A stretch of 64,000 nt of DNA from Octopus vulgaris (Eukaryota), in contig OX597823.1 of assembly GCA_951406725.2 (NCBI GenBank), forward strand, positions 35,216,001-35,280,000, given 5' to 3'. The position numbers and the translations under genes were made by a program. Position 1 is the first letter of the stretch. The number at the start of each line of letters is the position of its first letter. Positions 1,401 through 59,271 of this stretch are shown piece after piece. The notes under the pieces are model-generated. The model saw nothing but the letters and a program-made list of their open reading frames with translations, had not been told where the DNA came from and ran no database searches.

Positions 1401-1977
1401 GTATTTAGCGAAAACATAGTCAACAAGGTCACACAGGCTTACGAATGTCGGCTATAGTTGTTTACATGAGTGTATGTGTAGGTGTGTTAATATATTAACA
1501 GAAAAAAATTGCTTTCTAATGTAATGTGGAGATTAAGTACAATTTAATCTCACCTGCTAGGTAGCAAAATTTGATAGATGTTTGCAGAAGTGGAACTAAT
1601 TAGCAAGAATATCTGCTGCCAATATTGACAACACATCTGTTTTTCTATGAAAATATTATTTCTACTCACTATATGAATAGTGGCCATAATTTGACAGACG
1701 ACTATTTTCTATTGCTTTCTCTCCCCATCTTTCTCGCTCTCTTTCTCTTTCTGTCTTTCATTGGCGCCTTCTTTGTGGGTTCTATTTTGTCTTGATTTTT
1801 CTTTTTTCTATCTTTTCTCCTTCCTTTTTTTTGGTAGCTATATGTACAAATATACAAGCATATATACACACACATGTACACACACGTACACGTATGTATA
1901 TAGATAAACACATGCGCAAACACATGTATGTACACACACACACACACACATACATATATACATATATATAAATAAAC

Positions 1978-2864: not shown

Positions 2865-3097
2865 GGAGGCGCAATGGTCCAGTGGTTAGGGCAGCGGACT
2901 CGTGGTCGTAGGATCGCGGTTTCGATTCCCAGACCGGGCGTTGCGAGTGTTTATTGAGCGAAAACACCTACAAGCTCCACGAGTCTCCGGCAGGGGTTGG
3001 TGATCCCTGCGGTACTCTTTCACCACTCTTTCTCCCACTCTTTCTTCTGTTGGCCTGCTCGCTTAGCCAGCGGGGTGGCGTTATTCGAAGGCTAAAA
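2865..3097 (+). mobile_element. tRNA-derived SINE
   Basis: Pol III A box (tggtccagtggtt) and B box (ggtttcgattccc) followed by a non-tRNA body; directly follows a TA-rich microsatellite. Confidence 0.8.
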
Positions 3098-3473
3098 TAA
3101 TTTATATTATTATATGATTGAATGCCACGCATCCTCTTCCAAGTAAGTTTTATCTTAATAATTCTGATGCGCACTCTATACGATCTTTTTATTCTCTCGT
3201 TTTCTTCTCTTTCTCTCTTCTTCTTTTACCCCCTCTTCTCCCACTATTCTATCCTATTACTCTGTCGCTCTCTCTCCCTCACTCCTTCTTTGCTCACGTG
3301 GCTCCCACATGACCATCGGCCATCTTTTTTCTCTCCGTTGTAACTGGAACAAGAAAGGCGTGTTCTTGTTTGTCTCCTGTTCTAGTTTGATTCAGGCGTT
3401 CGCCACCACAACCTCGTTTAGTCTCAGCAGCTCTTCCTCTTTGTTTTCAGTGTCCTGTTTGCGTTACCTATTT

Positions 3474-3604
3474 TGACCCTCCGCAAAATCCCAAATTCTT
3501 TTCAATTTGCTTTGCGGGAGCAACTGTTTAATCGAAAGCGTATATTGTTGTTAAATGCTTGAAATACGAGACTAGAAAAACAGCCAACAGCTGATGAAGG
3601 GTCG
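3474..3604 (+). other. Three-way-junction CUGANGA RNA motif, copy 1
   Basis: P1 TGACCCT/AGGGTCG, P2 CCGCAAA/TTTGCGG, linker GAGCAA, P3 CTGTTT/AAACAG, then CCAACAG-CTGATGA. Confidence 0.45.
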
Positions 3605-3790
3605 TTCTTTATGTTTGCTTTGTTTTCCGTTTGTGTCTTTCGTTATTCGAAAGAATAGTTCATGTTCCGTGTACTCGTGCTTCGTACTCTTTTGTTGTAC
3701 ACATTTCATGACGTCCTGTGCTCACATATGCATATATATATATATATATATATATACGTATAGATGTATGTACATATACGTATGTATATA

Positions 3791-3849
<59 letters not shown>

Positions 3850-4135
3850 CCCTATTATTTCCTCTGCTACTGTCTAGATTATAGTAGGCTTAACAAGGTA
3901 TGCATTATTTTCTAAACTCATTCTGTCACAGATATAATAAGAAACAATTTAAATATTTTGGTTTCCATTATTTATGTAAGTTTATTAAAAATGTTTTATC
4001 CTTTATGATTGAAGTCTATGCGTAATTGATGTAATGTTTTCATTAATCAATCAAATGGATCCGGTTAAAACGGCTGTAATGGATTGACATCTAAACATAA
4101 ATCACAATTATAACAGAGAGGGTTGAAAAAAAACC

Positions 4136-4949
4136 TTGTATGTCTAGAAATAGCAGTCAAAACCACTACAAAGTCGCTATAAGCAATCATATTCTATCTC
4201 TTCATAATGAAGCTATCGGCGGGTGACGTAATGGATGTGACTGCTATTTCTAGACGTGCAAAGGTTTTTGTAACTCTCTCCGTAATGATTGTGATTTATT
4301 TATAATTATACACATTTCTTTTATGAAATTTATGATTATATGTTTGGTCATTGATATATTCATAAATAATTATGAATTATTTATGATATATCCATCTTAA
4401 TATATTTTTACATTACTCTTTAACTATTTAACCTTTTCACTCATTATCCAGTGAATCGCCGTGGCTCGATTTACCGTTCTTTTCTTAAAAACGCTGTGCA
4501 CGATTGGAATTCAGAAATTTGAATGTGTAGATAGAGTTTGACACATTATTCTTGCTGGTCGTGACACATGTAAGCCTCAAGGTAGATTTTTTTGTGTGTC
4601 TATTTGTATCTACAGTAATATTCTCCTGAAGAGAAGAATGGAACTTTAAGGTTCCCAACTTCGAAATTGCTCTAAAGAATTTACCTTTTATTTTTAAGCT
4701 TTGAATTTTATGTCATGTCGCCCGGCGACAGCTTTATTTTGGAGAGATAGAATATGAATATAGTGGCCTTAAGGTGGTTTTGTTTTGACTGCTATTTGTA
4801 GACATGCAAGGGTTTATAATTGCGATTTATTCATAATTATATACATTTCTTTTATGAAATTTATGATTATATGTTTGGCCATTGATATATTCGTAAATAA
4901 TTATGAATTGTTTCTGACATATCCTTTGTAATGTATTTTTACATTACTC

Positions 4950-4955
<6 letters not shown>
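4136..4955. repeat. PLE pseudo-LTR-like tandem/inverted repeat with degenerate hammerhead
   Basis: Direct repeat ~4240-4425 / ~4787-4955 and inverted segment at 4136-4166; CTGAAGA-GAAG..CTTC-GAAA-ttgc-TC at 4626-4672 with poor stems I and III. Confidence 0.55.
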
Positions 4956-4991
<36 letters not shown>

Positions 4992-5559
4992 TTTGTATAT
5001 AGTAAGTGATTTCCCCAAAGCAAATACTTACATAATAATTAATGTAATATTACATTGTGTGTTATGTTAATATAATTTGCTCTCCGGTATTCAAAATAAG
5101 TTATTCAGCAGTTAACATATAAAATCCAATAAAGTTCTAATAAGATAAGAAATTAGGAGGTATATTCCGTTGGATGATTTTGAATATATTTCCTTATCCA
5201 TATAGGTTTCTTGGAGCATAAATATCAACAATATTAATAATAAAGATTACTACAAAGTTGCTTATCATTACATTTAATTCTTTAATTCATATACAGCATT
5301 ACATAGGCCAACGAAGGTTTCAACTGCACCGATTAGTAACCGTTGTAATTGCAGCTCTGCTATAAAATCAGTGCGTTTTTTTTCTGGGTCTTTACTTGAT
5401 GTCCTTTGATTTGACTGTTTAACGATTTTATTTTATATACTCTGCGTTGTATGATGCAGAGCTGTCCGTTAAGTTAGACGCGAACCATCTCCATTTCAAG
5501 TTTTGATTGGATAATCACTTATAGCCCATTATTTCAACCCATTCTGTTGCTTAAATGTT

Positions 5560-6240
5560 TATTATTCATTTATACTAGGCAAATGCGAATTTCCTCATGT
5601 GCAAGCATCTCAAAACTTGTTCCCGTCTGTATTGGTTTTGCAGTACACAAAAAATCTCAATTGGTAGTGTAGTCTTTGTTTTTGTCCTTAATAGACTAGA
5701 TTAATTTACTAAGACTTGTTTGGAATCTTTTATTTTTATCTCTAAACGACGTCCAATGATTTGCCAGTCTCCTCTTGAAAATTAATGATGTCCTCCAGAT
5801 GTAAAAGTATTCATTACCCCCAGCTGTAACTTTACATATACATATTACATTTTTGGTCTTACACTTATTTTTCACATAACAAGAATCCCGCTTAGAACAA
5901 AGATAATTTTTTATATTTATCTCAGATTTAGTTTTAATTTGATCATTAATGGTAGAATCAAATGCATTTCCACCAAGTTCTTTATTACTAATTACTCCGT
6001 TAGATAACGTTATCTTTGTTCTAATTCTAGCTGAACTTTTATTCGATTTGACGTTATTTTAACTATGTTAAATTCTGTATAGTTCTAAAAATCTTTGACT
6101 CTCTCTGCGATGCAGATTTTACAACGGCTACTTCCATTAATATATGAGCCCGGATGATATATTAATTTCCACCTGATATCACGTGGTGTCTCTTGATCAT
6201 TGAGATGCCACACATGGAAATTTAAATTTATTTTCTAATA
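5560..6240 (-). pseudogene. Degenerate PLE (Naiad/Nematis-like) endonuclease region with two tandem GIY-YIG domains
   Basis: HVWHLNDQ..IRWKLI..GSYINGSSRCKICIAER, then CSKRDSCYVKNKCKTKNVI..YFYIWRTS..FKRRLANHWTSFR..TSLSKLI*; contains stops and frameshifts. Confidence 0.65.
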
Positions 6241-6840
6241 ATTACTGTTCTATTCTTTAGAGTGTGCTTCTCTTCTGATAGAAAGCCACGAATGAAGCGT
6301 TTTTTTGCCTGTCCTTCTAAATGTTGTTTCTCTTGCGTTTTTGTTCCATATATATATATATATATATATATAGCGGCGTATGTACACCTTTGTTCTCACC
6401 TTATAGTCGGTATGTATATAAATTTTGTACGACACTTACTCTATCTTTTATTCCCCCTCTCATTTTCTTCCTTTTTCTCGCTCTCCCTTTCTCATATTTC
6501 CTGGCCTTCTCTTTCTTTAACTCACACTATTTCCCACTCGTTTATCTCCCTTGTACCTTTATCTTTGTCTCTGATTTTTTTCTCATCCTTCAATCCCGCT
6601 GCCCCCTACCCATCTCTCCTCCTTCCACGTGACCGATGTCCGGCCAGCCATGATCTTTCTTTCATGGCCTGGCTGCCGACCGCCAACACCTCTTATGTCT
6701 ATCCCCTATGTTCCTACTTTTTGGCTTTCACTTCATACACACCAGCTCAATTTGATTCGTTCTCAGTCGAAAATTGTGTACTATGTTCTCCGTTTTTTTG
6801 TTTGCTTGTTTTTTGTTTTTGTTGCCGCACACATTCGCTA

Positions 6841-6967
6841 GCTTTCTTGCAAAGGGGTCTAATGCTCTTAGCTTAGACTTTTTTTTAGGAGTAACCAGAT
6901 CGAACCATCTCAAATGTAACTGCCCAAAATGGTTGTGACTTCTGGAACTTGACTGAGGAAAGAAAGC
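6841..6967 (+). other. Three-way-junction CUGANGA RNA motif, copy 2
   Basis: P1 GCTTTCTT/AAGAAAGC, P2 GCAAAGGGGTCTAA/TTAGACTTTTTT, linker GAGTAA, P3 CCAGA/TCTGG, then AACTTGA-CTGAGGA. Confidence 0.45.
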
Positions 6968-7109
6968 CACGAATGACCCGGCTTTCGTTTGCCTGTTCTT
7001 CTAATTGTTGTTTCTCTTGTCCGCCTTTGTGTCGTCTATCTGTCCAAATGTTTAATGTCCTCTACTGCGTCGTTTTTTTGTTCCATATATATATATATGT
7101 ATATTTATT

Positions 7110-7342
7110 TATGGAAAAAAGTCAAGGTAGTAAATGCTAAAATTATTTTATAAAAAACATTTCAGTACCGGTTTTAGTCATTGAGACTTCTTCAACTGAA
7201 AGCATAGAAAACAAATAAATTTTGGAAAAATTAAATGAAAAGTTTTTTAAAAGAATATTTGTGTAGTAATCAAATACAAGGGGCATTTTCTTTGTTTCTG
7301 CCTGTCTCTGTCTCTCTCGCTTACTCTTGTGGGTTCGAGGTC

Positions 7343-7345
<3 letters not shown>
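7110..7345 (-). mobile_element. Solo pLTR fragment related to the Penelope element at 38.3-44.4 kb
   Basis: Similar to 38375-38600, including a decayed hammerhead cag-TTGAAGA-agtc..gact-AAAA-CCGG-TA-ctg. Confidence 0.7.
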
Positions 7346-7398
<53 letters not shown>

Positions 7399-7453
7399 AG
7401 ATGTACTCGCATAGCAAGTAATTTGATCTGAGATCGTGTGCTGAAACGAAAAC

Positions 7454-7727
7454 AATTGCAGCGTGGAAGGTGTTTATAAGCCATTTAAGAAACACACAAA
7501 AGCCGTTCGATTCACTTCAACATTTAAGTTTAATTTGTCAAAATATTTTCGTCGCTAAAATCCGCGACCTGTTCACTGACAAAGTCCGTGCTGCACGGAC
7601 TTTGTCAGTGAACAGGTCGCGGATTTTAGCGACGAAAATATTTTGACAAATTAAACTTAAATGTTGAAGTGAATCGAACGGCTTTTGTGTGTTTCTTAAA
7701 TGGCTTATAAACACCTTCCACGCTGCA

Positions 7728-7730
<3 letters not shown>
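7454..7730. repeat. Perfect palindrome, 138-bp arms, 1-nt centre at 7592
   Basis: aattgcagcgtgg...ccgtgc-t-gcacgg...ccacgctgcaatt; abuts (TA)n on the right. Confidence 0.95.
7601..7650 (+). ncRNA. Minimal type I hammerhead motif, G3-C8 variant (mirror copy on minus strand at 7534-7583)
   Basis: tttgtca-GTGAACA-g-gtcgc-ggatttta-gcgac-GAAA-ATAT-TT-tgacaaa: 7-bp stem I, 5-bp stem II, palindromic stem III AATATT. Confidence 0.7.
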
Positions 7731-7811
<81 letters not shown>

Positions 7812-7963
7812 ATTTAATAAATAAAATATATGCATACATACATATATATACGTACCTACATCTACATGTGTATATACATGCATCGTTGTTAAAAAAGTCC
7901 GTTTCCTAGTTGTTTTATGCTTTCGTTTCTCGTGATCTACGTTTATTTGTGGTGTCCTGTATT

Positions 7964-7996
<33 letters not shown>

Positions 7997-8532
7997 GCAT
8001 GTATATATACATGTAGATGTAGGTACGTACATATATGTATGTATGCATATATTTTATTTATTAAATTATTGTATGACTGAGCGCCATCGCGTCGTTTCGT
8101 TTCTTTTCTCCAAGTAAGTTTTTATATATACTTAAGACGCGAACTCTGTAATCCTTTCCTTCCTTCCTATCTGTCTTCCTCTTTGCCTGTCTCTTCCTTC
8201 TTATTTTTCACCCTTTCTGGTTTCCTTTCCGCTCTATCTCTCTCTATCTCTCTCTCTCTCACCCCTCCTCATCTCTCTCACTGCCTAGTCGACTACCTAC
8301 CTCCTTTCACTGGCAGCTTTCTACAAGCCAACATGGCTTTTTTTGCGCTCTGAATTTATCCATCGTCTAGGCTTAAAAAACAGCCCTTAATGTTTTTTTT
8401 GTCCTGTTTTTATTCTTTATGTGTACTGTATTTTTTTGTATTTGTATTTTTATTTTGTATTTGTAATTGTATTTTATGTGTATTGCTTTTACGTCCTGTT
8501 CTTGTCACATTTTTTTCTTTCCTCGTTTTTAG

Positions 8533-8650
8533 CCCTCTGCAAAGGAATTTTATTTTAATTCTTTCGCAGGAAGGATTGGGTCGACGGGTCGTGTTCTGTC
8601 TTTACCCTCGAAACACGCATTGAGTCGATCCAGGGACAGCTGATGAAGGG
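8533..8650 (+). other. Three-way-junction CUGANGA RNA motif, copy 3
   Basis: P1 CCCT/AGGG, P2 CTGCAAAGGAATT/AATTCTTTCGCAG, linker GAAGGA, P3 TTGGGTCGAC/GTCGATCCAG, then GGACAG-CTGATGA. Confidence 0.45.
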
Positions 8651-8769
8651 GAATATTCCTTGTATTGTTTGTCTTGTACTCTGTTTTTTCGTTGTTAAAA
8701 AAGTCCGTTTCCTAGTTGTTTTATGCTTTCGTTTCTCGTTGTGTTCTACGTTTATTTGTGGTGTCCTGT

Positions 8770-8821
<52 letters not shown>

Positions 8822-8837
8822 ACAGAGACACACACAG

Positions 8838-8875
<38 letters not shown>

Positions 8876-9589
8876 GCATGTATATATACATGTAGATGTA
8901 GGTACGTACATATATGTATGTATGTACGCATATATTTTATTTATTAAATTATTGTATGACTGAGCGTTTCGTTTATTTTCTCCAAGTAAGTTTATATATA
9001 TATATGGGTATTCAGTACAGATTCCAAATCATAATTTAAAACACACAACGAAATAAATATATACATATAAATTTATAAATCAGTGAACAAAATTACATGG
9101 AAAAGTCATATGTGAAAACTATGCATTGTGTACGTTGGGTTCAGGTACCGAATGGAGGAGTGCCAAATACAGAGATAAAAATTTGAGGTAAGGGCCTCCA
9201 AAAGGAACAACTCGAATCGATTAAGAATTTAATGTTTATACGAAATGTCGGATGAAAGTTCAAAATTTAAAAATTCAGAGGTAAATAGGTTGATAAATAG
9301 GTAGATTAATAAATATATACAGATTCGAGTGAATTCGGGTATAGAATATCATCTACGGCCATTTCAAGGGTACAGTAAATGTATAAATGGCGTTTTAAGT
9401 ATTCTATCAAATTATTACCATGTAGGATTTCATCACGAAGGAAACCATCCTGATGAAAGGGGCATTATGTTTCTATATTTGGAATATTTAAAACGCCATT
9501 TATACATTTTGTTGGTGTTTCGTCTTTACTTAATTCGTCCGTTGCTTCTCTTGAACTGTATTACTGTATTACGATAGATAAAAAAATAC

Positions 9590-11600
9590 ACTGTAAAAGT
9601 GTTATAACAATACAAAATAAAAACAGCGGCAGTCACAAACACGCAACTAACCAACAATCAATATTTCCAACACACTTACTCGAACTGTAAACTGTACTTG
9701 GACTTCGAAGACCCAACTACGATGATTTTATCAAAGCCACAAGGGTTAAACAAAGAAGGGACACTACAAGAAACAAATGAGGTCGGGGATTTATCGAATG
9801 ATATTAACATGAATAAATATATTATAAATTCGGATGAGAAATGAGAAACAAAAATGAATGGAAGCGGAATGGGTTTGATCCCACCAACCACATTCCTGCG
9901 TTGCACCGTTTTGTCCTTTTTTTTTACTCCGCTTAATTTGGCACTTCCTAGCCCAATATTCGGGCTACTTTCTTTCATCTTCTCCCGCACATTTTTGCCA
10001 TCAGGCATTTCTTCTCCAGACATGTTTTCCCTCTTAGTTGATATAAAAAGAGGTTCACTAAAGCATGTCCGGAGACGTAGGTACCTGATGCGATACCTCT
10101 TCAAAGCGTCTCCCATATCACTTCTTTCGCTATAGCTGTTACGGCCAGAAAACAAAATTTCTCTTCTCCTTTTAGAGGAGACAGCGGAACGATCTTAATA
10201 ATCGATTCAGATGACAGCTGAACTCTCCCAAGCTGTGATAATACCCATTCGGACACTACGATTGTTTCGTTGCTCTGCCCGCAACCTGGGTACGTAAGCG
10301 AAACTGTGACGCCGTGCCTCGTGAGTTTATCCCAAACTGGCAAGCGACTTCGGAAGCACAGCCAAGCCAGGGACCTCTGGAAGTTGTCCTTGGGAACCGG
10401 GTCAAAAATCCGTCGATGCAGGTTGCAAGCTGATTTTCATAGAAACTTAGAGTTTCCCCCAGGCTGTCATCACACTTGCCCTCTACCAGCCCTCTATAGG
10501 ACATTGAGGTGGTACTCATTCGCGAGAGAACCACAAGCGCTTGTCGACACTTTGCTTGCCAAGCTCCCAGCCTTGGTTACGCCTGATCGAGATTTTCAGT
10601 TCACCAAAAGAGGTGAACCTGGGAAATATCTTGTCAACGAATGGCGACCACACTCACTCACCATCAAGGTAGAGTCAGCGAATGCCCGCGCATCTTTAGC
10701 CACGGCATCCCTAACCCACCCTTTAGCCTCTCTTCGTAGCTAACTCTCTACTAAATATAATTGACTCTTTTTTATGACTCTTTTGAGGGCATACCACCAT
10801 TTGTCGTTAATAATGGTCCCTGTCAATGCCATCATCACTAACTGTCTAATCCGACTCCTGTAGGCATCACAGGTCAGTAGCGACTTACTTAGCTTCCAGT
10901 AGCCGGATCCCTGTCTAGTCATGCTCTCTACATCCAGCTGTAGCTGACAATGGTTAACTGTGGACGACTAGCTATATTCTTGTCTTAACTCTTCATTAAT
11001 ATTCTGTCTAGGTATTATCTAGATGACCCATATTTACTTGACGACGTCCACTGTGGAATGTCCGGGTTATCTAGAATGTATTGATCTGCCTGCTGAAAAC
11101 GTCTGAGCAAATCGTTGAGGCAGGAGCCTACATTCCTAAAACGATTCGGGCCAGCGTAATCTACGCGTTCATTGCAGATTGTGTTGAAGTTACCTAACAC
11201 CACTAACATGTGTGATATAGCCAGAAAGTTTTCCAGGTTCTTGAAGAAGTCAGGCTGCCCTATCCCCACCGGGGCATAGATCACCACCAAACTGAAATCC
11301 TTACCACAACTGAGTGTCACATCTTGGACGACCAGCCTGCCTTCCGGATCAACAAAGATTGTTCTAGTTTGAGCACCTTCCTGACCCCCCCTCGCATCTA
11401 CCGGTTGACATGGAGAAATGACGTTCTCGTAGTCGTTAAGGAGCGGCGCAAGGTCCTGCAGTCCTCTCTGTCTGGCCTCAGTAAGAGCTATTACATCTAA
11501 CCGATGTGAACTGAGATCGTCTACGAGGCAAGATTGCTCCCAATCCAATCTCAGGCAATGCACATATATACATCCTAAATTAAGCGAGTACAAAATTGGT
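9590..11600 (-). mobile_element. Internally deleted, degenerate L1/Tx1-clade LINE
   Basis: APE endonuclease motifs (DVIALTE, LVVIYAP, VVLGNFN, WT), GSGYWKL, and a C-terminal zinc-finger-like region; no RT core seen between them. Confidence 0.75.
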
Positions 11601-11906
11601 ACTTACTGTTTTTTTTTAAATGTGTGCCGGCTGGGAAGTAGGTCCTTCCTCGACCGTTTCAGCAGTGGTTGGTAAATTGATTGTTAGTTGTATGTAAATA
11701 TCTCCAGAGAAATGTCTTACCCAAGGACCAACGTTTCTTCGTCGCTTGACAAGTTATTCATGTTTCACTCAAAAAATTTTTTTAACGTTGAAATTCTACC
11801 TTCCGCCTTCCAGGAAGGGGAAATGTATCGCTCGTCTGTGACACGGCAGAAATACAGTATATTTTTTTTACACAAAACAAATTCAATTAGAAATAAATTC
11901 TAACAC

Positions 11907-14070
11907 ATGTGTACACTAACTTCAGGTTTAATTCTTCACCTTCGCTTCCAAAATTCTTCACACTGCCATTCTACGAGGCGATATTCAACACGCGTTCGGA
12001 CACGCATTTCAGTACAAACGAGAAGCGCAAACTACAATCTGCTGACTACATCGGACCGCTACTATTTATATGTAGCGGTGCCGTCTATTCTCGTCAGAAG
12101 ACGTTGTACTCTTGCCACAACAGAAATTAAAAGCTGGTTATCAAGACAAGTTCCCTCACAAGGTATGTAAGTAGTGTGTCGGGAGTTTACAGATGTGAAC
12201 CTAGGGAACACGTGATTAGTTGGCATTTGGTATACCTGTGATTTGGCGAAGCTAAAACATCATTGCACATTGTTACTATTGTTTACTGAAAATTTCAGGA
12301 TATAACAAGGAAATCGAGTATCCCAGTGTACCATCATCTATACACCCAGTGCCTCATTCAGCTGAAAACCTAGTGCTACTTGTCCTTCACCTACCCTCCC
12401 TTGAAGATGTAGATCGTGATGAAATCAGTGACAGCAATGATGCAGATTTTGAAATTGAAGTTGACTCACCTTGTGGATTGAAATTCCAACATGACAATTC
12501 CAAATACAGCACATTTAACACTTAAACACTTGTTTAAGTAAAAATAGTAACTCAACATAATTACTTTCTTCTTTTTCATATCTACATTTTGATATACCTT
12601 TTCCATTTCTTTCATTTTCTCATTCCACATTTGGCTATTGTAATCTCTCTCCCTCCCCCTCTCTCAAAGTAAAAGTGTCACAAATGTTAGATCTTTTTCC
12701 TCCCCCAACATAACACATATTCTATGGGTTTAGTAGTTCACAATTGTGACGTTTGTTCCGACTTTTGATTGGATGCAATGTAAAAAAAAATGAAGTGGGA
12801 AAGTTTACTAATGCAGAAGTACCAAATGCTAAGAAGGCTAGACTTCTACAAGTCTATTGTCATTTTGTCTTTCCAGCATTTTAACTTAACGGCAATGTCT
12901 CATAATTGCTGCTTGGGTGTGCAACCGCACAGTCATTGTATTGGCACCATAGACATCAAAATGTTGCCACTCATTTTAATTTACAAATGCAACCGTTTTG
13001 GCCACAATACATTTCCGTTATTTCCCCAAATTGAGCACAGGATTCCCTTCACATCATATTGTGACATGCATTGCAGCTTCGTTTAATGACTAGTCAATGA
13101 GCAAGAGTTGAATGATTTGGCACAAGATCTGGGACGATATTAAAAGGCTTCAGAACTCCAAGCATCAAAGGCTTGCTTGAAAATGGAGCAAAGATATCCT
13201 ACTTCAGATCCAGAGAGAATGCATTTCTGCACCATTTTCGAAGTAACAGTAGGTTTGTGTATTGCTATAACATGCAGGGCTTACTGGAAGAATTGAGAAT
13301 TCCAATTTGCAACTCAACTGAATGGAAACTATTCATCGATAGCTTAAAGCACTCCACAGTGGAAGTTTATATGGTTGAGACCCAATTGGGTATTCAGTTT
13401 GTTTTCGTGAAGGAAATGGTTACATAAAGAGAGCCATCCAGTTGTTGCAGTATCACAAACAAAATTGGATCATCTGTGTTGACCTTAAAATAACATGCTT
13501 CTTTCTTGGTCAGCATTGTAGATACACTAAGAATCCCTGCTTTCTGTGCATGTGGGACAGCAGAGCTCGAGAGGAATTGACTTCTAAGATCTGACCGCAA
13601 ACCTGTGGTCTCAACATGAGCCACTTGTTGACATAAAGAATATTATATTCCCATCTCTGCACATGAAGGTCATAGAGGAACAATATCAAAGTAGAATGGA
13701 TGTAAATATGATAGCTGGCTATTGCTGGAGCATAAAGTGAAATTTTCCGGATTGAACACTCCAGGAAGAGCTGTAAGCGTAAATTTTTTACTTTAATTGC
13801 TTCCACAAAATTTGATTCACAGGAACAATATCCCTTGTGTGAACAAAATAAATTTGTACAAACATTTCTGTCAAGCAATGTTTTCTTATTTTCCATTGTA
13901 TGTAAATTTTTAAAGCATCCTATCAAATAAGTTCAGATTTGCTAGGTGTGGTATTTTCATGGTTTTTGAGACAAACCGAGTTCAAAACGTTGACGTGATA
14001 CAGAAAAACTGGAGCTATCTGTAGATTCAAGTATCAAATATAACTCAACAAAAATTGTGTTCATCAGTAT
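11907..14070 (+). mobile_element. Chapaev3-like DNA transposon relic, interrupted by an insertion at ~12475-13085
   Basis: Recognised motifs EYPSVPSSIHPVPHS, EQELNDLAQDLG, KISYFRSRE, FVYC..GLLEEL, EWKLFIDS; many lesions. Confidence 0.65.
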
Positions 14071-14289
14071 AATTATTGTTTATTATTCTGTCGAAGAATA
14101 ATGTTAACAATTAATGCCATTTCCCTTCCATTGAACATATTAAAACATATCTCTTCATTGTTAACAAAGTGTGGTGTAAGATAACGTGGTGTGGAGTAAG
14201 TGAGATAGATGATAGCAGCTATATGAATCTTGGTTTTCTTAAGAACGAGCACAAGTAGAGTTATATGACATATTTCTACAATAATTAGT

Positions 14290-16220
14290 ATATAGGAAAA
14301 AGTGAATCGTATATTACTGATGATTTTATAGTCTGTACAGCTGTGGCTTGTATTTTTAATAACGAATTTTCCTTATTTATTCCTGTTTGATCTGATATTG
14401 TCTGGATATTGATAGAGTGGGAAGACATGAAACTTGAGAGAATGGTAAATTGGTTTTTCACAGTAAAATCTTGTCTCGATTTAAATTTATAACCCATGAC
14501 CTATCGGTCAAACTTTTTTACTGTTGGTGTTGATCGTAGTTAGTTGTTTCGAGTTAGTGAGATTTTTTTTAGTTTGGGCGTCTTTTGCATTTGATTATTT
14601 TGTATGATTTAAGTGCCTTTTTCATTTTTGGGTCTCGACTCAATAATGTCCTGATGGATGATGCTGAATGTTTCTGTTTCTTAGTTAGTGTGCTGTAATT
14701 ATTGGCGTCTCTGAAACGTTTGTGGCTTTTCTTAATTCTTTAATGTCTATTGCTTTGGCGCGTTCTATCCTATTCTCTATTAGAGTAGACTGATATTTTC
14801 TTTCAAGTAGCGCCTGTCTTAAATCAAGGACTCTTTTCTTCTAAATTTCCAGATTTTGCTCGGATTCATCTAGCTAGTTTAAACGGAATAGTAGATTTGG
14901 TATGTTTTATGTGAGATGGAATTAATAGTAGGTACTTTTCAGAATCCGTAGGTTTATAGTACATGGCCCTTTCTAAGTTTGTATCATTCTTTATAATCAG
15001 AATCTCTAAGAAGGGTAGTCAGATATGTTAAACTCCATTGTGAATTGAATATTTTTTATTGAAACTGTTGTGCAAAAATTTGAAATCATTGAATTCATCT
15101 AGGTAATATACCTACAGAATAAAGCAGTTATCTAAGTATCATTTCCAATTTTCACCAGCTAATTTTGGAAGTTAATACTGTACCTTCTTTTGGCTTTTCA
15201 TATAATTGGACTTCTAGATATGTCATGGCTAGTTTGGCGTATCTTGGAGCAAATTCTGTACCCAAAAGAGTCCCAATTTATTGGTAGGTGTTTTCCTCGA
15301 AAATGAAGAAATTACTTTGAAGGATGAATTTTATTCCCTCTGTGACGAATTGTTTATCAATTCGGTCCGGAGTTTTCTTCGGGAATTTTATTTATCAAAA
15401 GGCTATTGCCTCAAGTCCGTACTCGTATAGGGTTGTAGTAGAAAGGCTTACTACATCAAATGAAGCGTTTATGGTACTCCTGTTAAAATTTTTCGGAAGA
15501 TGGTTGAGAAAGTCTAGGTCAACCCTTAGGAAACGTGGTATAAATTTTAAGAGAGGTTTTTAGAATATGTCAAAGAAGTTGATAAGTTTGTGAGTTTCAG
15601 AGGCCGGGCCTACCACAACTGGTTTTAATTTTAGAACTTTCAGAAACGGCATGTTTATGCAGATTGAATGTGATTCTTTGCAGGCATCATTAATTGTTTT
15701 ATTTTTGTGGATTTTAGGAAGTCCGTAGAAGAAACCGGTTTTAGCTTTAAAATCTATTAGATAATCAATTTCTTTATTACTTAAGCCTTTTCCGTGTTGG
15801 TTTATGAAAGCGTTAAGTTTAGACATGGCTTTTGTTTGTTGGTAGCTGTTTACTATTTTATAGTGGGTGGTATGCTGAAATAGGGTTAACGTGGAATTTT
15901 TGCATTGTTCCATTTTCAAAATAACTACAGCATTTCCCTTAGCTTCTTTTATAAGTATATTATTATTGTTTTTAGGTCATATATAGTTTTCCATTCTGTT
16001 CGACCAGTGTTGGACTACAGTTTAGGACGTGGAAATTCATTATAAGGGAAGGCGAATATAAACTCACAAAATTTGTCTAGTGTTTTGTTTCTTTCTTTTG
16101 TTGGATTATTGTTGCATTTATTTTGCACAACGGATTAATAAGTGTTTTCTTTATCGAATAATCCTTCCGTTAAATTTAATTTTCTACAAAGAATTAAAAT
16201 GTCATTTCGTACTTCACTGA
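14290..16220 (-). mobile_element. Degenerate Penelope-like (Neptune-type) RT/GIY-YIG copy
   Basis: FFYGLPKIHK, LKPVVVGPASETHKL; colinear with the intact element at 39181-41535; many frameshifts. Confidence 0.85.
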
Positions 16221-16711
16221 GGTAGTGCCAGGGTAAATTTTTTTTAATTTTGTCCTTTTGGGAGTTTTAAGTTTCTGAAATCTTTCTTCAGGTCTTAAAA
16301 ATTGTTTGTGACTTTTGTTCTTTTGCTTGTGTCTCTGAGTCTGTGTTCCAGAAAATTAGTGGAAAGAAATGGAGTGTTTCGTTTCTTTCCACTTTTCTGG
16401 AATAATAGTTACTCTTTGTATGCCACCTGAGGTTAAGACGTGAATGTTGACCAATCAATTTTGTACGTCAGCAGATACCTTTTTCTTTAAAAAGCAATTT
16501 TTATAACAACGGCCAGAATAGGCAAAACTCGCGAAACTCCATATAACTATGCACTTTTAAAAATCTAATGTGAAATCGGTAAAGTGCATTCCTACATTTT
16601 AAAATCTAATTAAATTCTACTTGAGTTTAATATATTCTCAGTGCATTTTCAACTTTCTTTCCACTTGTTTGGATTAGATTAACAGCAATTTAAATATGTA
16701 TATATATATTT

Positions 16712-16875
16712 TTATTCTTTTATTTGTTTCAGTCATGGGACTACGGCCATGCTGGAGCACTGATTTAAGGAATTTTCGTCGAACAAATCAATCCCAGCAC
16801 TTGTTTTTTAAAGGTAGGTACTCACATTCACACCAGTAGTCAAGCAGTGTTTAAGGATCAAACACAGACACAGAG

Positions 16876-16948
<73 letters not shown>

Positions 16949-17020
16949 ACGAGTTTCAGTTTCTGTCTACCAAATAAGACTTTGGTCGACTGAGGCTATA
17001 GAGGAAAATACTTGCTCAAG
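16712..17020 (-). mobile_element. Degenerate copy of the microsatellite-containing SINE family
   Basis: Reverse complement matches the 3' and middle parts of 17985-18405 (tgtttcagtcat..gccatgctggagcac; tttcagtttctgtctaccaaat). Confidence 0.7.
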
Positions 17021-17445
17021 TATACTATCATTAATACTGGTAACTTTTAAAGCTTATATCATACCTCTTAGTTTATAATTAATATATAGTTTGCATATTC
17101 TATGGTCTCAATATTCCTGTAGTTAATACCAGGTATCAGTCTTTATAGATACCACCTAATAAATAAATAATTTAGTTTTAAATGACTGAATTAATAAACA
17201 ATTTCTATATAATCTTCTCTTTTCTAGTGATGATAATAAGGTATATTTGCTTCATCATGGTTTTAGTGATTAAGTTATTTATTCCCTTCTATGGTGTTCT
17301 ACCCTATTTGATTGTTTTTATAATACCCTTTATGAAATTAAACCTAATTTTTGTACCCCTAGGTATTTATATTAGCTTATATATAACAGCACTGGTAGCT
17401 TTACAACTTGTAATATACCTCTTAGATTATAATTAATATATAGTT

Positions 17446-17619
17446 AGCGGCTGTGCGGTAAGTAGCTTGCTTACGAACTACATGGTTCCGGGTTCAGTCC
17501 CACTGCGTGGCACCTTGGGCAAGTGTCTTCTACTATAGCCTCGAGCCGACCAAAGCCTTGTGAGTTGATTTGGTAGACGGAAACTGAAAGAAACCCGTCG
17601 TATATATGTGTATATAGAA

Positions 17620-17665
<46 letters not shown>

Positions 17666-17895
17666 GTATGTGTGTGGATCTGTTTGTGTGTCTGTGTTTT
17701 TTCCCCCCAACATCGCTTGACAACCGATGCTGGTGTGTTTATGTCCCCGTAACTTAGCGGTTCGGCAAAAAGAGACCGATAGAATAAGTACCAGGCTTAC
17801 AAAGAATAAGTCGTGGGATCGATTTGCTCGACTAAAAGCGGTGCTCCAGCATGGCCATAGTCAAATGACTGAAACAAGTAAAAGAGTAAAGAGTA
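17446..17895 (+). mobile_element. Octopus tRNA-derived SINE with internal (TA)/(TG) microsatellite
   Basis: ggctgtgcggtaagtagcttgc..ggttccgggttcagtccc head, CORE-like ccttgggcaagt, tail gactgaaacaagtaaaagag; several near-identical copies in the window. Confidence 0.9.
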
Positions 17896-28409: not shown

Positions 28410-31102
28410 TGGTGAGTTGTAATATATATAAGAAATTAAAAAAGGAAAATGCACACATTTTACATAGTTTTAATATAAGTTTTAATATAGCGAACGGTTT
28501 CGCTTTCCCCATTCATGATATTATGGTTTTCTTATTTGAATATGTATTTTCTTAAGAAGAAATTTTTGTCCATGTTGTGTGTGATGATATTTACGAGTGA
28601 ATGACTTCACAAGTAGAAAAGTTAGTAAAGGAAGATTTTGCACAATAGTGTTGAATGCCTCACTGTTTCTGGGGTTGTGTGTTGATATAAATAGTTGTGT
28701 TTTGAGATGAGGTGTGGTGTTATATTTTGTTGTTCTTAGTGTTTTTATGTTTAATTTTTTGGCACGTTTAATCCCCTCGTCTATAAGTGAGGGTGGATAT
28801 TGTCTTTCAGTAAGCGTTGTTTTGAGGTCTTGAAAACGAAGGTCCCGATAGTCTATCAGACACTATTGTGAAAATCCTTTTTGCCAAATTGAAAGGGATA
28901 TTTATTTTGATGTGTTTCGGGTGGCATGAGCTAAAGAGGAGATATTGTTTTGAATCAGTTGGTTTATAATAGATGTCAGTTATGATTTATTGTTGACTTT
29001 TTTTTTATCATGTCTAAAATTAGGAGCTGTTCTTTGTTATATTCGATTGTGAATTGAATGTTACTATTTATATCATTTAGTGTTGATTTGAAATCCAAAC
29101 GTTTGTCGATGTTATCCTTCCAAATGATAAAACAATCATCCAGGTATCTTTTCCAATTTTTTCTTATGTAAATGTAAAATGGGTAACCATATTTCCGAAG
29201 TGATACTTCATATAAGGTGAATTCAAAATAACCCATTATTAGGTTCTCAAGAACAGGAGCTGCTTTCGTTCCCATCGCAATTCCGCATTTCTGACGATAG
29301 TATGTGTCATCAAATAGAAAATAATTGTTCTGAAGTATATATTTTAAAGATTCAATAATAAAGATCTGATTTATGCGTTCCAGGAGTACTTCGGGGTACT
29401 TTTCCAACAAGAATTTAATTGCTTTTATTCCATAGTGATGTGGGATGTTGGTGTAAAGATTGATAACATCGAGGGTAACCAATATTGCCTCTTCATTAAT
29501 TGTTTTTGGTAGGTGTTCTAGCAAGTTTAAATCGTTTCTAATGAAACTTTTGATGTATTTCAGCAAGGGTTTCTGTAGGATGACTAGAAAATTGCTTAGG
29601 CAGTGGGTTTCACAGTCTGGCCCAGCTACAATGGGTCTTAAAGTTAAGTTTTCTGGCGTTTGGATATTTACGTATTTGCCTGGTGATTGTTTGCAGGCTT
29701 CATTGATTATGTGTATTTTAGGAAGGCCGTAAAAAAGACTGGGTTTACATTTGAAGTTCGTGATGTAGTCTGTTTCTTTTTCTGTCAGTCCTTTTCCATG
29801 TAGAAGAATTAAAGATGCAAGATTTTTCATTGTTTTTTATTGTTTATAGTGTATAACTTTTTCGTCGAAGGCCCCGTTTTCTAATATGGATAATACTAGA
29901 TCTTTCTAGTGTTCTGTGTCAATCAAAACTACAGCACTTGTTCTGTCTGCTTCTTTAATTGTCAGGTCTTTGTCGTTTTGTAGTTCAATTAGATTTTTCC
30001 ATCCTAGATTGTTGAGGTTCGAATTAATCTTTCGTTTACGGGATGTATAAGGGAAATTTTGGACATGGTCGCAGAAGTCATTCAGTGTTTAATTCCTACC
30101 CTTATGTAGAAGGTAATTACTTCTGTTTTTGACTAGTGATTCATCTTCATTTGTGCAAAATCTTCCTTTACTAACTAGAGATCCAAAAATGGACGACATC
30201 CTGAAAACGCACAAACTCCTCAAATACAAAAAGCAATACAAATCGCTAAAGAGTCTACTAACAAATGCGAAGCTTTACAAAACAACCACGAAACCAACGG
30301 TTAAAAAATGTGGACGCCCAAACTGTGGAAACTGCACCAACTTACTTGAAGGCTCGGATTACCTTTTCAAACAAGGATAGAGGTTCACAATTAAAACTAG
30401 TTTCCCTTGTGCCTCCGGGAACCTAATTTATGTAATAACCTGCTCGGGTTGCGGACAAAACTATATTGGACAGACGAGTATGACCTTGTGAAGGAGAACC
30501 ACTCTACATAAAGAGCAAATTAGTTTCGCGCAATACAGGCAAATTCCTCTCAGTGAACATATAGAAAAATGTGCAGATAACATCAAACCAAATTTCACAG
30601 TTTCCCCCTTCTACCTCTGCAAAGACATCATCTCTCCACAAGAAGGTTTAAATAAAGAAACTTGTTTCATTGAAAAATACAGAACACGTCTTAATATGCA
30701 CGCATAACCAACTTTTATCATTTTACATATTTCAATTTATAATTACACCACTGTATATAAATCCCTTACTAAACAAGATTTTCGAAACCTTTTTTGGTGT
30801 GTACACATATATATTCCTCTCCCCTTACCGAAAGCAGAAAAGTTATCTCCCTTGCCCACAACAACAACAACAACAACAACAATAATAACGATAACCAATT
30901 ACCTCCCCTTATTTTTCTATTTGTGAAGTCATTTACTTGTAAATATCATTACTCACAACATGAACAAAAATTTATTCTTAAGAAAATGCATATTCAAATA
31001 AGTAAACCATAATATCATGAATAGCGAAAATGAAACCGGTCGCTATATTAAAAATTGTATTAAAACAATGTAAAGTGTGCGTATTTTCCTTTTTAATTTC
31101 TT
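28410..31102. mobile_element. Degenerate PLE: 5'-truncated minus-strand RT copy joined to an inverted 3' copy
   Basis: Minus ORF 28976-29830 (LFYGLPKIH, GIAMGTKAAP, RYLDD); plus-strand CGRPNCGNC and GIY-YIG from ~30150; inverted ends ~28410-28620 / ~30915-31102. Confidence 0.85.
31010..31050 (+). ncRNA. Minimal hammerhead motif, A3-U8 variant (degenerate; mirror copy at ~28483-28522 on minus)
   Basis: taatatc-ATGAATA-gcgaaaat-GAAA-CCGG-TC-gctatatta; the two copies suggest a consensus stem II of GC-GAAA-GC. Confidence 0.5.
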
Positions 31103-34200: not shown

Positions 34201-35439
<1,239 letters not shown>

Positions 35440-39180: not shown

Positions 39181-41535
39181 TTAATTGTTTGTCGTAGACC
39201 CGTTAAGAAGTGGCTTGTATTTTGTAATAAAGAGATTTTCTTTACTTATTCTTTGTCTCGAGGTTGTATCGTCCCTAAATTGGTAGAGGGGGAAAATTCT
39301 GAAGTTTGGTGTTTTTTTGTTGGCGCAAGTATCTATGTGTTGGCTAAAAGCTATTTTTCTGTTTTGGGGAATTTTTATCTGGGATCTGTGCAGGGCCATT
39401 CGTTTACGCAAACCATTTTTTGTTTGGCCTATGTACTGCTCTTGACACCCGGAGCAGGTTAGTGAGTATATTAGGTTCTCCGAAGCACATGTGAAGTTGC
39501 TTTTCACTGTAAACCGTTGTCCCTGTTTGAAGGAGAACTCAGAACCCTCGATTAGATAGTCGCATATCCCGCAATTGGGTCTTCCACATTTTTTTACTGT
39601 CGGCTTCTGTGTTGAAGAGTGAATTCGGGCTTGTGTAAGGAGACTTTTCATGGATCTAGGCTGTCTTTTGCTTTTTATGATCGTGTGTGTTTGGAGGATT
39701 GTGTTCATTCTGTGGTCTTTTTTTAGGAGGGGTATGTTGTGGAGGATGGTGTCGAAGGCTTCGTTATTGAGAGGGTTGTGTGTGGAGATGTATGGTAAGG
39801 CTTTTGGTTGTAAGTTTTTCTTTGATTTGGGATGTCTCAGTTCCTTGATGTTAAGTTGAAGGGCACGTTGAATGCACTTGTCAATAAGTGAAGGTGGATA
39901 GTTCCTGGTGATTAGGGTATCTTTTAGTTCTTGTAGTCGTGTGTCTCTGGTGTTTGCGTTAGAGACTATAGTGCATATCCTTTTTGCTAGATTGAAGGGG
40001 ATATTCATCCTGGTGTGTCTGGGGTGGCATGAATTGAATGGAAGATATTGCTTAGAGTCTGTAGGCTTATAGTATATGTCTGTTTCTATTATATTATTAG
40101 CTTTCTTAATGAGGATATCGAGGAAGGGGAGTTGTTGTTGGCTATATTCCATCGTGAATTGGATGTTTACGTCCAGTCCGTTTAAAATTTTCTGGAATTC
40201 TATGAGTTTTTCTATATTTTTATGCCAAAGGATGAAACAGTCATCTAGATATCTCTTCCAGTTGTTTTCTATGTAGATGGAGAAAGGGCTGCCATATCTT
40301 TCTAGAACCTTACGATACAGACTGATCTCTAGGTATCCTATGACTAGGTTGGCAAAGGAGGGGGCCATTCGTGTACCCATCGCAGTCCCCGATTTTTGTC
40401 GGTAGAAGTTGTCATTGAAGGCGAAGAAGTTATTTTCCAGGATGAATTTAACCCCTTCTATCACAAATTCTTTTTTGATGCGGTGTGGTAGTTCGTTGGC
40501 GTGATTCTCTAGCCAGAATTGGATTGCCTCTAGTCCTAGGTTGTGGGGGATATTGGAGTAGAGGTTGACTACATCGAAGGATACCAGTATGGTGTTTTTG
40601 TTTATAGTATTCGGTAGGTGATTGAGCATATCTAAGTCGTCCCTTATATAGCTTTTGACATGTTTGAGGAGTGGTTTTAACAGGGTGTCTAAAAAGTTAC
40701 TGAGGCGGTGGGTTTCGCATGCGGGACCTGCTATTATGGGTCTCAATTTGAGGTCATTAGGATTAGGGACTTTAATTATTTTGTCTGTAGCTATCTTGCA
40801 TGCGTTGCTTATTTTTTCACTTTTGTGGATCTTAGGTATACCGTAGAATTGGCTAGTTTTACTTGTGAAATTGGTCATATAATCATATTCTTTGTCGGTG
40901 AGCCCTGCTTTGTATGGGTTTAATATGGATTTTAGTTCCCTCATTATTTTTTGTTGACTGTAGTTTTGTGCCTTTTCATAGTATGTTGTGTCTTCCAGCA
41001 TAGAAAGTACCAAAGTTATGTAAAATGTCGTATCCATTAAGACAACAGCACTCCCTTTATCGGCCTCTTTGATTGTTATTGTTTTATCTAGTTTTAATTT
41101 GTTCAACTCAGCCCATTCTTTTTTGCTGAAGTTTGGTTTGTGTTTTTGTTTGTGCATATGTTGATATGGGTAATTTGATATGTGGTCACAGAAATCATCA
41201 AGTGTTTTATTCTTACCTTTCGAGGGGGTGTAGTTACTCCTATTTCTGGCTAACGATTCGTCCTCGTTGTATTTATCGTATAGCTCCTCAGTAAGTCTTA
41301 ATTTTCTGCAGAATTCTGCGATGTCTTCTTTCATTTCATTGTAGTTGGGGTGTTGTGGGGTGGGTGTAAACTTGAGTCCTTTGGAAAGTATGTTTATTTG
41401 GTTTGCTGTTAGTTCCTTGTGAGTTAGATTAATAATTTTTATTACTTTTGGTTCCTCCTGCTTGTTTGGTGCTATCTTGTGTCTCTGTGTTTGCGTATTA
41501 GGTCTAAAAAATGAATGCGGTGGTTGGGACGGTAG
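39181..41535 (-). CDS. PLE ORF2: reverse transcriptase, Zn finger and GIY-YIG endonuclease (frame open from 41535, first ATG at 41334)
   Basis: LSKGLKFTPTP, ADKG, FYGIPKIHK, LRPII, GTAMG, RYLDD, FLD, CGRPNCGIC, NLIY..C..C..YIGQT..R..H; no lesions. Confidence 0.95.
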   Translation of the reverse strand, partial: LPSQPPHSFFRPNTQTQRHKIAPNKQEEPKVIKIINLTHKELTANQINILSKGLKFTPTPQHPNYNEMKEDIAEFCRKLRLTEELYDKYNEDESLARNRSNYTPSKGKNKTLDDFCDHISNYPYQHMHKQKHKPNFSKKEWAELNKLKLDKTITIKEADKGSAVVLMDTTFYITLVLSMLEDTTYYEKAQNYSQQKIMRELKSILNPYKAGLTDKEYDYMTNFTSKTSQFYGIPKIHKSEKISNACKIATDKIIKVPNPNDLKLRPIIAGPACETHRLSNFLDTLLKPLLKHVKSYIRDDLDMLNHLPNTINKNTILVSFDVVNLYSNIPHNLGLEAIQFWLENHANELPHRIKKEFVIEGVKFILENNFFAFNDNFYRQKSGTAMGTRMAPSFANLVIGYLEISLYRKVLERYGSPFSIYIENNWKRYLDDCFILWHKNIEKLIEFQKILNGLDVNIQFTMEYSQQQLPFLDILIKKANNIIETDIYYKPTDSKQYLPFNSCHPRHTRMNIPFNLAKRICTIVSNANTRDTRLQELKDTLITRNYPPSLIDKCIQRALQLNIKELRHPKSKKNLQPKALPYISTHNPLNNEAFDTILHNIPLLKKDHRMNTILQTHTIIKSKRQPRSMKSLLTQARIHSSTQKPTVKKCGRPNCGICDYLIEGSEFSFKQGQRFTVKSNFTCASENLIYSLTCSGCQEQYIGQTKNGLRKRMALHRSQIKIPQNRKIAFSQHIDTCANKKTPNFRIFPLYQFRDDTTSRQRISKENLFITKYKPLLNGSTTNN

Positions 41536-57687: not shown

Positions 57688-58145
57688 TTCAAATGTGAGC
57701 ACAAGGCCAGAAATGTTTTCTAGAAATAATCTATCTAGGATTACATTGTCATAGATGCATCTGTTTACTTCTCTTTTTAAGAGGCTAGGGTGTGATTTGA
57801 AGATGTGGCTGCTATTTCTATCAGATTGAGCTTGTATGTTATTATTTCTACTTGGATTGGATGGATCACTAGAGCTGCAGGTAAAAGGAATTCAGGCATT
57901 TTAAACACATTCCTTTATATTTATGAATTCAGTCATAACGAGATCAAGTTTGTTTTCCGTCTTTCAGGAGTCAATAAAGTAAAGTACCAATAAATATACT
58001 ACAGTCGACTTAATTGACCTCATCCGCGTTCTTCAATTTGTTTTTAGGCTTGTGAGGAACCATTATATTACCCTTCTTTATGCTACATTTTCTTACAGAG
58101 TTATATTATCACATAAATACAATTCAAAATAAACAAAACACTTAC

Positions 58146-59127: not shown

Positions 59128-59271
59128 TGCTGCTTTAATTTTATTAAAATAATTCTCTGTTGATACGTTAACAAAATTTGTTATTTTCAAATTCTACAAA
59201 TCGCTTTTGTAGTGTTGTAAACAGAATATTGCCAGATGAAATAAACCACAACATTGTACAGATAATCTGTG

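Follow-up and report, generated by a model that had tools for sequence, protein, structure and literature searches.

A hammerhead-type RNA motif with a split core in Penelope-like repeats of Octopus vulgaris

Three repeats in a 64,000-nucleotide stretch of the Octopus vulgaris genome (assembly GCA_951406725.2, contig OX597823.1, positions 35,216,001 to 35,280,000 of the forward strand; 'the window' hereafter) carry a hammerhead-type RNA motif that keeps all conserved core nucleotides, has its blocks in the order S-G-C, and has block C split in two. We consider it likely that this split hammerhead, located at the 3′ end of Penelope-like repeats, cuts the element RNA in cis after U-H.

The three loci (3474-3604, 6841-6967, and 8533-8650) had been noticed in an original prediction as a recurrent three-way junction of a helix P1, a hairpin P2, a 6-nucleotide (nt) purine-rich segment, a hairpin P3, 6-7 nt, CUGANGA, and the closing strand P1′. 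All of these parts are present at all three loci. Their overall fold, on the other hand, is a double pseudoknot plus an added junction, not a three-way junction.

Layout and covariation of the motif

From 5′ to 3′, the motif runs through P1, hairpin P2, strand 10.x of stem II, P3, strand 16.x of stem III, and U-H, then through strand 1.x of stem I, a 2-5 nt link, strand 11.x of stem II, and GAAA, and finally through strand 15.x of stem III, P3′, strand 2.x of stem I, CUGANGA, and P1′. Block C is split by two additional helices, P1 and P2, which lie between A9 and G10.1. P3 had been read as a simple hairpin and the purine-rich segment as an unpaired linker; instead, the P3 loop holds U-H, strand 1.x, strand 11.x, and GAAA, and the segment is strand 10.x of stem II.

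Copy A (3475..3603, plus strand) consists of P1 (3475-3480/3598-3603), the P2 hairpin (3481-3517), stem II (3518-3522/3556-3560), P3 (3524-3529/3578-3583), stem III (3539-3543/3564-3568), and stem I (3545-3550/3585-3590), with GAAA at 3561-3564 and CUGAUGA at 3591-3597. Its core is intact, with two G-U wobbles versus Watson-Crick pairs in the family majority. With U3543 and A3544 as H17, the scissile bond is predicted by structural analogy at 3544..3545 on the plus strand, the cut falling before 3545.

Copy C has the same layout (8533..8650, plus strand): P1 8533-8536/8647-8650, P2 8537-8569, stem II 8570-8574/8605-8609 with one mismatch, P3 8576-8585/8624-8633, stem III 8590-8594/8613-8617, stem I 8596-8601/8634-8639, GAAA 8610-8613, and CUGAUGA 8640-8646. 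By the same analogy, its bond would be at 8595..8596 (plus strand), before 8596, with U8594 and U8595 as H17.

Copy B (6841..6967, plus strand) is likewise laid out as P1 6841-6848/6960-6967, P2 6849-6886, stem II 6889-6893/6921-6925, P3 6895-6899/6941-6945, stem III 6904-6908/6929-6933, stem I 6910-6915/6947-6952, and CUGAGGA 6953-6959. Because its G12 is changed to A (6926) and its helices contain mismatches, this copy is probably dead; the majority of family B has GAAA. The position that corresponds to the predicted bond in family B is 6909..6910 on the plus strand (U6908, C6909 as H17), again by analogy.

A full descriptor of the motif has two matches in the window, versus a mean of 0.04 over 100 shuffles, and misses the copy at 6841 because its G12 is A. 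CUGANGA alone is not above chance in the window (28 matches versus 22.8 expected), nor are the single-sequence folding energies of the motifs (z −1.2 to −2.0 on both strands) under nested folding, which is blind to pseudoknots. The search of Rfam that had been proposed with the original prediction gave no match to a known family on the motifs at the gathering score, and none of the 73 matches listed at E ≤ 5 overlaps any of the three. When hepatitis delta virus-like, twister, and pistol ribozymes were considered by eye on both strands, their motifs were not found, while the hammerhead core fits completely.

Core words were read from alignments of 30 copies per family, selected by BLAST without a structural filter. 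In the majorities of families A, B, and C, Watson-Crick pairing is complete over the 6 bp of stem I, the 5 bp of stem II, and the 4 bp plus A15.1-U16.1 of stem III, and the letters of all three stems differ by family (stem II is GAGCA/UGCUC, GGGCA/UGCCC, and GAAGG/CCUUC in A, B, and C, respectively). In the same order, a true GAAA lies within P3 in 23/30, 20/30, and 29/30 copies, CUGANGA adjoins stem I in 24/30, 26/30, and 28/30, and the majority sequences at U-H between stems III and I are AUA, AUC, and GUU. CUGANGA is invariant in two further alignments (A1 and A2), and N7 is U, A, G, or C among copies, as in hammerheads.

In the 18 representatives of the sequence clusters described below, the linker from stem I to stem II is always 2-5 nt, H17 is never G, and 10.1-11.1 is G-C, the last two being constrained by the descriptor. 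C3, G5, G8, G12, A13, A14, U16.1, and a non-G H17 persist across families despite a median core similarity of only ~43%. The YYGCAAA that had been noted at the start of P2 is not conserved, as most family B copies have ACAAA and the sequence varies in other families. The P2 hairpin is strong in most families but absent in family E. That family (loci L156-L170), in which P1 runs straight into stem II, is young, with 96-98% identity among top copies; no open reading frame was seen upstream of its copies.

Covariation was judged by double changes and shuffles, without a covariance model or R-scape. Among the loci examined, 191 distinct complete copies form 18 clusters, the representatives of which have a median similarity of 43%. 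Watson-Crick pairing with the own partner is 0.89-0.92, versus 0.36-0.48 with strands dealt among clusters (0/2000 per stem), a level that is inflated because these copies were chosen by a pairing descriptor; their sequence diversity is not inflated.

A cross-family alignment was made of 10 rows of similar spacing, namely 9 of the 18 representatives and window copy B; the remaining representatives, which MAFFT placed out of register, were left out. In stems I, II, III, and P3, 90.9% of its cells pair, and U-A occupies A15.1-U16.1 in 10/10 rows. Double changes are seen at 17 of the 22 pairs (4/5 in stem II, 4/5 in stem III, 4/6 in stem I, and 5/6 in P3). None of 500 shuffles is as high, and slid controls are 16-47% paired. 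Stem II formed with the upstream 10.x strand is paired in 98% of cells and covaries. In contrast, a canonical stem II, formed by 11.x with the bases after A9, is paired in 26%, which is at chance level, as 326 of the 500 shuffles are as high.

P1 and P3, which the descriptor does not use, had been said to differ between copies and still pair. This holds: in 16 family representatives (the 18 minus three truncated or broken ones, plus one family D copy), the own partners are preferred to all others (0/300 reshuffles better for P1 and 0/1000 for P3), and the P3 duplex energy beats 1000/1000 reshuffles.

P3 would hold the outer ends of stems I and II together, analogous to the 'interaction' stem of Eckert. 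P1 and P2 share one continuous strand, as do stem II and the core via C11.1-G12, and the other strands cross, from A9 to P1′ and from P2′ to G10.1. By reasoning only, this is the connectivity of a four-way junction, where a P1/P2 stack would meet a stack of stem II and the core, and the catalytic pocket would stay unchanged.

Host repeats and their relation to Naiad elements

Each window copy belongs to a high-copy repeat family of its own, with 3,614 first-look candidates for family A, 2,606 for B, and 2,702 for C. Genome-wide, the pattern CGAAA, 22-28 nt, CTGAHGA has 32,743 matches versus 4,126 for the reversed control. Among 90 consecutive matches (the first 90 on contig C1), 39 are complete by the descriptor; by eye, the rest of these 90 are mostly 5′-truncated or decayed copies, and about ten look unrelated. 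If the start of contig C1 is typical, the genome is estimated to contain ~14,000 complete copies (10,800-17,700).

A pattern with an intact block C and a long loop has 125 matches versus 25 for its control, and the four that were read comprise two of the canonical type I form and two that were unparsed. The former (105-180 in locus L402 and 100-175 in L404) belong to another repeat family, whose hammerhead is of the canonical type I with a long loop II and a short stem III and which makes up dozens of the listed intact-block-C matches. A further repeat (L182 and L185, ~1478-1632, minus strand) has GAAA followed by CUGAUGA, is not parsed by the descriptor, and may be another variant or chance. 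In one family G copy (L336), an internal deletion joins both stem II strands at a short microhomology, removing block S.

The original prediction had placed an RNA structure in the pseudo-long terminal repeat (pseudo-LTR) of a Penelope-like element, where a ribozyme would sit, and in this it was right. The CT-rich tract, T/G-rich tail, and microsatellite that it described are present, and its partial duplicates are real (6277-6335 versus 6958-7019, 84%; 7883-7966 versus 8689-8775, 95%; 7983-8128 versus 8862-9000, 89%).

Host element A (3101..3731, plus strand, approximate boundaries) is a short non-coding monomer with a splice-donor-like site (3143-3148), a CT-rich tract, the motif, and a tail ending at (TA)n (3732). 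Host element B (6277..7090, plus strand, approximate boundaries) contains the upstream duplicate of its 3′ end (6277-6335), (TA)n (6348-6372), a donor-like site, a CT-rich tract, the motif, and a tail. Host element C (7883..9002, plus strand) is a partial tandem with a unit of ~810 nt and microsatellite length variation, in which 7883-8128 repeats 8689-9000, donor-like sites lie near 8112 and 8985, and a short inverted piece lies at 7804-7847.

Families A and C open, after an A+T-rich spacer, with ATG and a few similar codons (M-x-E-R-H) into a GTAAGT donor-like site. Such segments are at 3115-3148, 8075-8117, and 8955-8990 of the window, and the donor-like site of family B is GTATGT. The segment is possibly a detached first micro-exon; several consensi of Naiads, a group of Penelope-like elements, are annotated 'no start codon' in Craig 2021 (PMC8557442).

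Copies of the repeats show 5′ truncation, fixed 3′ ends at microsatellites, partial tandems, inverted pieces, and (TA)n targets. Naiad elements are likewise described, in the passages of PMC8557442 drawn on here, as inserting at (TA)n with 5′ truncation, partial tandems, and inverted pieces. By eye, the 3′ untranslated regions (UTRs) of the published Naiad_Ovul and Naiad_Obim have exactly the same layout, and a 25-nt piece of the Naiad_Ovul motif has 141 exact matches genome-wide.

At two loci (L131 and L171), a family D motif lies ~900 nt downstream of a Naiad reverse transcriptase (RT) remnant on the same strand, the L171 copy being 5′-truncated; the Naiad assignment is by identity to published Naiad_Ovul. 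Among 50 loci with remnants of the Naiad RT C-terminus (the top 30 plus 20 picked from weaker matches), 27 contain a family D segment by BLAST. A descriptor-complete motif lies downstream on the same strand in 9/50 and on the opposite strand in 0/50, and eight of the nine belong to family D, the other being an unrelated family A insertion. The link of family D to Naiad RT remnants is thereby shown.

For families A, B, and C, no open reading frame was linked; walking upstream always met a microsatellite or the tail of the previous monomer. Their assignment to Naiads accordingly relies on the motif that they share and on how they insert. We infer that they are non-autonomous monomers of ~600-850 nt moved in trans by a Penelope-like RT. 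Two candidate partners were rejected: in L382, the family A copy that follows a Naiad remnant at a distance of 2.2 kb was inserted separately, and the near-complete Penelope-like element of the window with a C-terminal endonuclease (39181-41535, minus strand) lacks CUGANGA in its 3′ region.

5′ junctions, alternative readings, and other contents of the window

If the ribozyme cuts element RNA in cis, it would do so just 3′ of H17 and release a 5′-OH at position 1.1. With priming at the (TA)n tail, reverse transcription would then run off near the cut, giving the many short insertions whose starts lie between 0 and +24, while uncut or religated circular RNA would give complete and partial-tandem copies. 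A scheme of this kind has been proposed for other Penelope-like elements (PMC4209133, in the passages drawn on here).

The 5′ junctions were read in 90 consecutive copies of family G, the most numerous, identified through a motif in their tail that lies 56 nt 3′ of the predicted bond. Of 84 copies at risk, 27 have their 5′ end at 0 to +24 from the predicted cut. Upstream, 5/57 start at −25 to −1 (Fisher p = 8e-4) and 4/52 at −50 to −26. Downstream, 4 start at +25 to +49 (Fisher p = 1e-6) and 6/90 at +25 to +55. In a scan from −20 to +30, the best step is at 0. These counts keep all 90 copies, as a filter for internal deletions over-flagged (48/90 rows); with the filter, they become 23 versus 2 and 4. 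In other families, 11 junctions lie at −1 to +15 and 3 at −22 to −4, among 33 matches that were required to contain GAAA; low-scoring rows for which no close reference existed were left out. The pile-up of 5′-truncated copies from the predicted cut onward is an indirect sign of cleavage in vivo. A depth dip near 8576-8603, in four contig sets guessed to be RNA, was not used, as contigs cannot show ends.

Several points weigh against the reading as a cleaving, split-core Naiad ribozyme. Just 7/90 junctions lie within 3 nt of the cut, so that the peak is a 25-nt smear; a few junctions are internal deletions, and RT stalling at a pseudoknot could also cluster them. The peak window is richer in TA/AT steps than its neighbors (4 versus 2-3), although few junctions fall at −50 to −26, where the A+T content is equally high. 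Pairing levels across families are inflated, because a pairing descriptor picked most representatives, and these families are related to one another. In family B, compensation of the stem II change is not clean: 10.3/11.3 is A-C in 3 copies, G-T in 4, A-T in 1, and G-C in 17, and it was not used as evidence. P1 and P2 are variable, P2 being weak in some copies besides its absence from family E, and 0-2 unpaired nt flank the junction in 15/16 representatives. The four-way geometry is reasoning rather than a model, and the survey across phyla described below was made by eye. No Naiad RT match was found at 210 family A, B, and C loci with ~1.5 kb flanks, where rare autonomous copies could be missed.

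Among other readings, the strongest is that the fold derives from a hammerhead but no longer cuts, serving the Penelope-like RT as a signal for binding or for template selection; stalling of this RT at the pseudoknot would produce the 5′ pile-up. The motif is known here from sequence alone, and the junction peak is a smear to +24 rather than a spike; moreover, metazoan Penelope-like hammerheads show low activity in vitro, with non-cleaving roles possible, according to the passages of PMC4209133 drawn on here. Nevertheless, the catalytic positions are kept across families of otherwise divergent cores, and the peak begins, on its upstream side, at the predicted bond, so we regard this reading as improbable. 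Somewhat more improbable is cleavage only as a dimer or across tandem copies, with strands exchanged so that no threading of the pseudoknot is needed, as in minimal Penelope-like hammerheads. The elements do occur in partial tandems, and metazoan Penelope-like hammerheads have been proposed to act as dimers (PMC4209133, same passages). However, stem III here is a full 5-bp helix extended by P3, not a short palindromic stem that forces dimers, and type SGC of Eckert cleaves as a monomer (PMC10085705, in the passages drawn on here). Even in a dimer, 10.x must be the upstream strand, because the canonical stem II fails.

This failure bears equally on the reading as a plain type-SGC hammerhead, where stem II would be made with the strand that follows CUGANGA, and P1 and P2 would be incidental flanks. 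Although the bases after A9 in family C can make 4/5 pairs with the 11.x strand, the canonical pairing is at chance, in contrast to that of the upstream strand, and its first pair is possible in 4/18 representatives and 4/39 complete matches, which makes this reading very unlikely. Least credible are the alternatives of the original prediction, namely a permuted type II hammerhead with GCAA for GAAA, or a protein-binding element like a k-junction; we give them almost no weight. In their favor, nested folding programs show just P1, P2, and P3, and CUGAUGA resembles box C/D words. The permutation itself stands, as S-G-C, but type II with GCAA does not, as P3 contains a true GAAA along with stem III and U-H, and GCAAA is unconserved. 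A kink-turn or k-junction features an unpaired purine-rich bulge beside tandem sheared G-A pairs, whereas the supposed purine linker is Watson-Crick paired and covaries as stem II, and N7 varies as in hammerheads.

The window has other contents. A near-complete Penelope-like element on the minus strand (39181-42812) has RT and C-terminal GIY-YIG domains in a 784-amino-acid frame, with a second frame of 446 amino acids upstream. An inverted copy of its 3′ end is at 43008-43600 (plus strand), and decayed relatives are at 28976-29836 and 15560-15976. A repeat like a short interspersed element headed by a tRNA (2866-3100) lies directly upstream of copy A and also occurs upstream of a family A copy elsewhere (L056). 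A perfect inverted repeat with ~135 bp per arm lies at 7399-7730, centered near 7595, with (TA)n flanks. A tRNA match above the Rfam gathering score (35358-35439, plus strand) directly follows a long (AT)n. A 366-amino-acid open frame (58093-59193, plus strand) encodes a G-protein-coupled receptor, by eye presumably of the vasopressin/oxytocin receptor type.

Naiads of other animals and comparison with known hammerheads

According to the parts of Craig 2021 (PMC8557442) drawn on here, Naiads lack canonical hammerheads, ten consensi are flagged HHR_core and eight HHR_half_core, and Naiad_Ovul and Naiad_Esco have HHR_half_core in the 3′ UTR with no structure given. The half cores that were read, by eye, appear to be complete hammerheads in non-circular order, including those of the unflagged Obim and three Acropora entries.

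The consensi of File S5 (PMC8557442), with 54 Naiad entries, were surveyed by eye at 58/62 CTGATGA, 30/43 CTGAAGA, 15/23 CTGACGA, and 15/25 CTGAGGA, words broken across lines being missed. The split layout was seen in 11/54 entries. They include a ctenophore, cnidarians, and cephalopods. The following header names Bfor (the ctenophore, in which stem I is short), three Acropora, Obim, and Ovul; file order gives one Clytia, two part-12 entries, one crustacean (part 19), and Esco. Six nematode entries, three of Nippostrongylus by header and three by order, have an intact block C, the order C-S-G, and the same P3, one of them with a single extra U between A9 and G10.1. A nearly intact block C in what looks like S-G-C order was read in some chelicerate passages, and no such layout was seen in the bivalve passages inspected. 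All of these layouts follow a single cyclic order, opened at different points of the chain. We infer that the split form, type CSG, and type SGC are related by circular permutation, of the kind that tandem pseudo-LTRs would produce.

With more reserve than for the cut itself, yet on balance in its favor, we propose that the motif is a seventh natural layout with a four-way junction in the core, which would be the missing Naiad ribozyme from ctenophores to cephalopods. It would be active in vivo, set the 5′ end of ~1/3 of insertions, and rank among the most abundant ribozymes of the genome. As a circular permutant of CSG and SGC, it would have been shuffled in tandem pseudo-LTRs, and the type CSG of soil metagenomes may come from nematode Naiads. 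If so, the puzzle of Naiads without the hammerhead typical of other endonuclease-bearing Penelope-like elements becomes directly testable. The step at the 5′ junctions would also be genomic evidence on the role of hammerheads in Penelope-like retrotransposition, which is called unclear by Craig et al. (PMC8557442, in the parts drawn on here). In the open-access literature, we found no permuted hammerhead for Naiads and no split block C; one paper mentions variants with additional helices.

Hammerhead types I, II, and III have the circular order C-G-S without a core pseudoknot, unlike the S-G-C order here. The minimal type I hammerheads of Penelope-like elements, as presented in the passages of PMC4209133 drawn on here, sit at the same position of the element and have the same proposed role, the processing of precursors, possibly circles; they are ordered C-G-S, have a short stem III, and depend on dimers, whereas the order here is non-circular, stem III has full length, and two helices are inserted. 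An unpaired nucleotide at A9/G10.1 is common in hammerheads of Penelope-like elements (PMC4209133, same passages). If the layout here is true, the hammerhead core accepts whole helices at this place, which would be useful for structure work and ribozyme engineering.

The non-LTR retrozymes (bioRxiv 10.64898/2026.07.22.740005) are likewise short, non-coding, tandem-prone hammerhead monomers derived from Penelope-like elements. They come from other clades of these elements, and no Naiad ribozyme is given in the parts of the preprint drawn on here. In comparison, the monomers here are ~600-850 nt, microsatellite included.

Closest are the permuted types of Eckert 2023 (PMC10085705), as described in the passages drawn on here. 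Type SGC was validated in vitro and comes only from metatranscriptomes, type CSG consists of two metagenomic sequences listed as soil DNA, and neither is reported there from genomes of known organisms, where there is one GCS candidate. Type SGC shares with the present motif the core, the S-G-C order, a short linker between stems I and II, an interaction helix (P3 here), and two core pseudoknots. Here, in contrast, A9 leads into a new helix, P1, strand 10.x lies upstream behind P2, and P3 joins stem III on both strands. The scheme of six permutations in that study assumes at most 1-2 nt inserted between A9 and strand 10.x, an assumption that the split block C breaks; if the present layout is true, a scheme presented as complete at six gains another. 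Moreover, the SGC and CSG examples are environmental sequences, whereas the present motif resides in an animal genomic repeat with thousands of copies, which, if true, would move non-circular permutations from anonymous environmental sequences to animal genomes at very high copy number.

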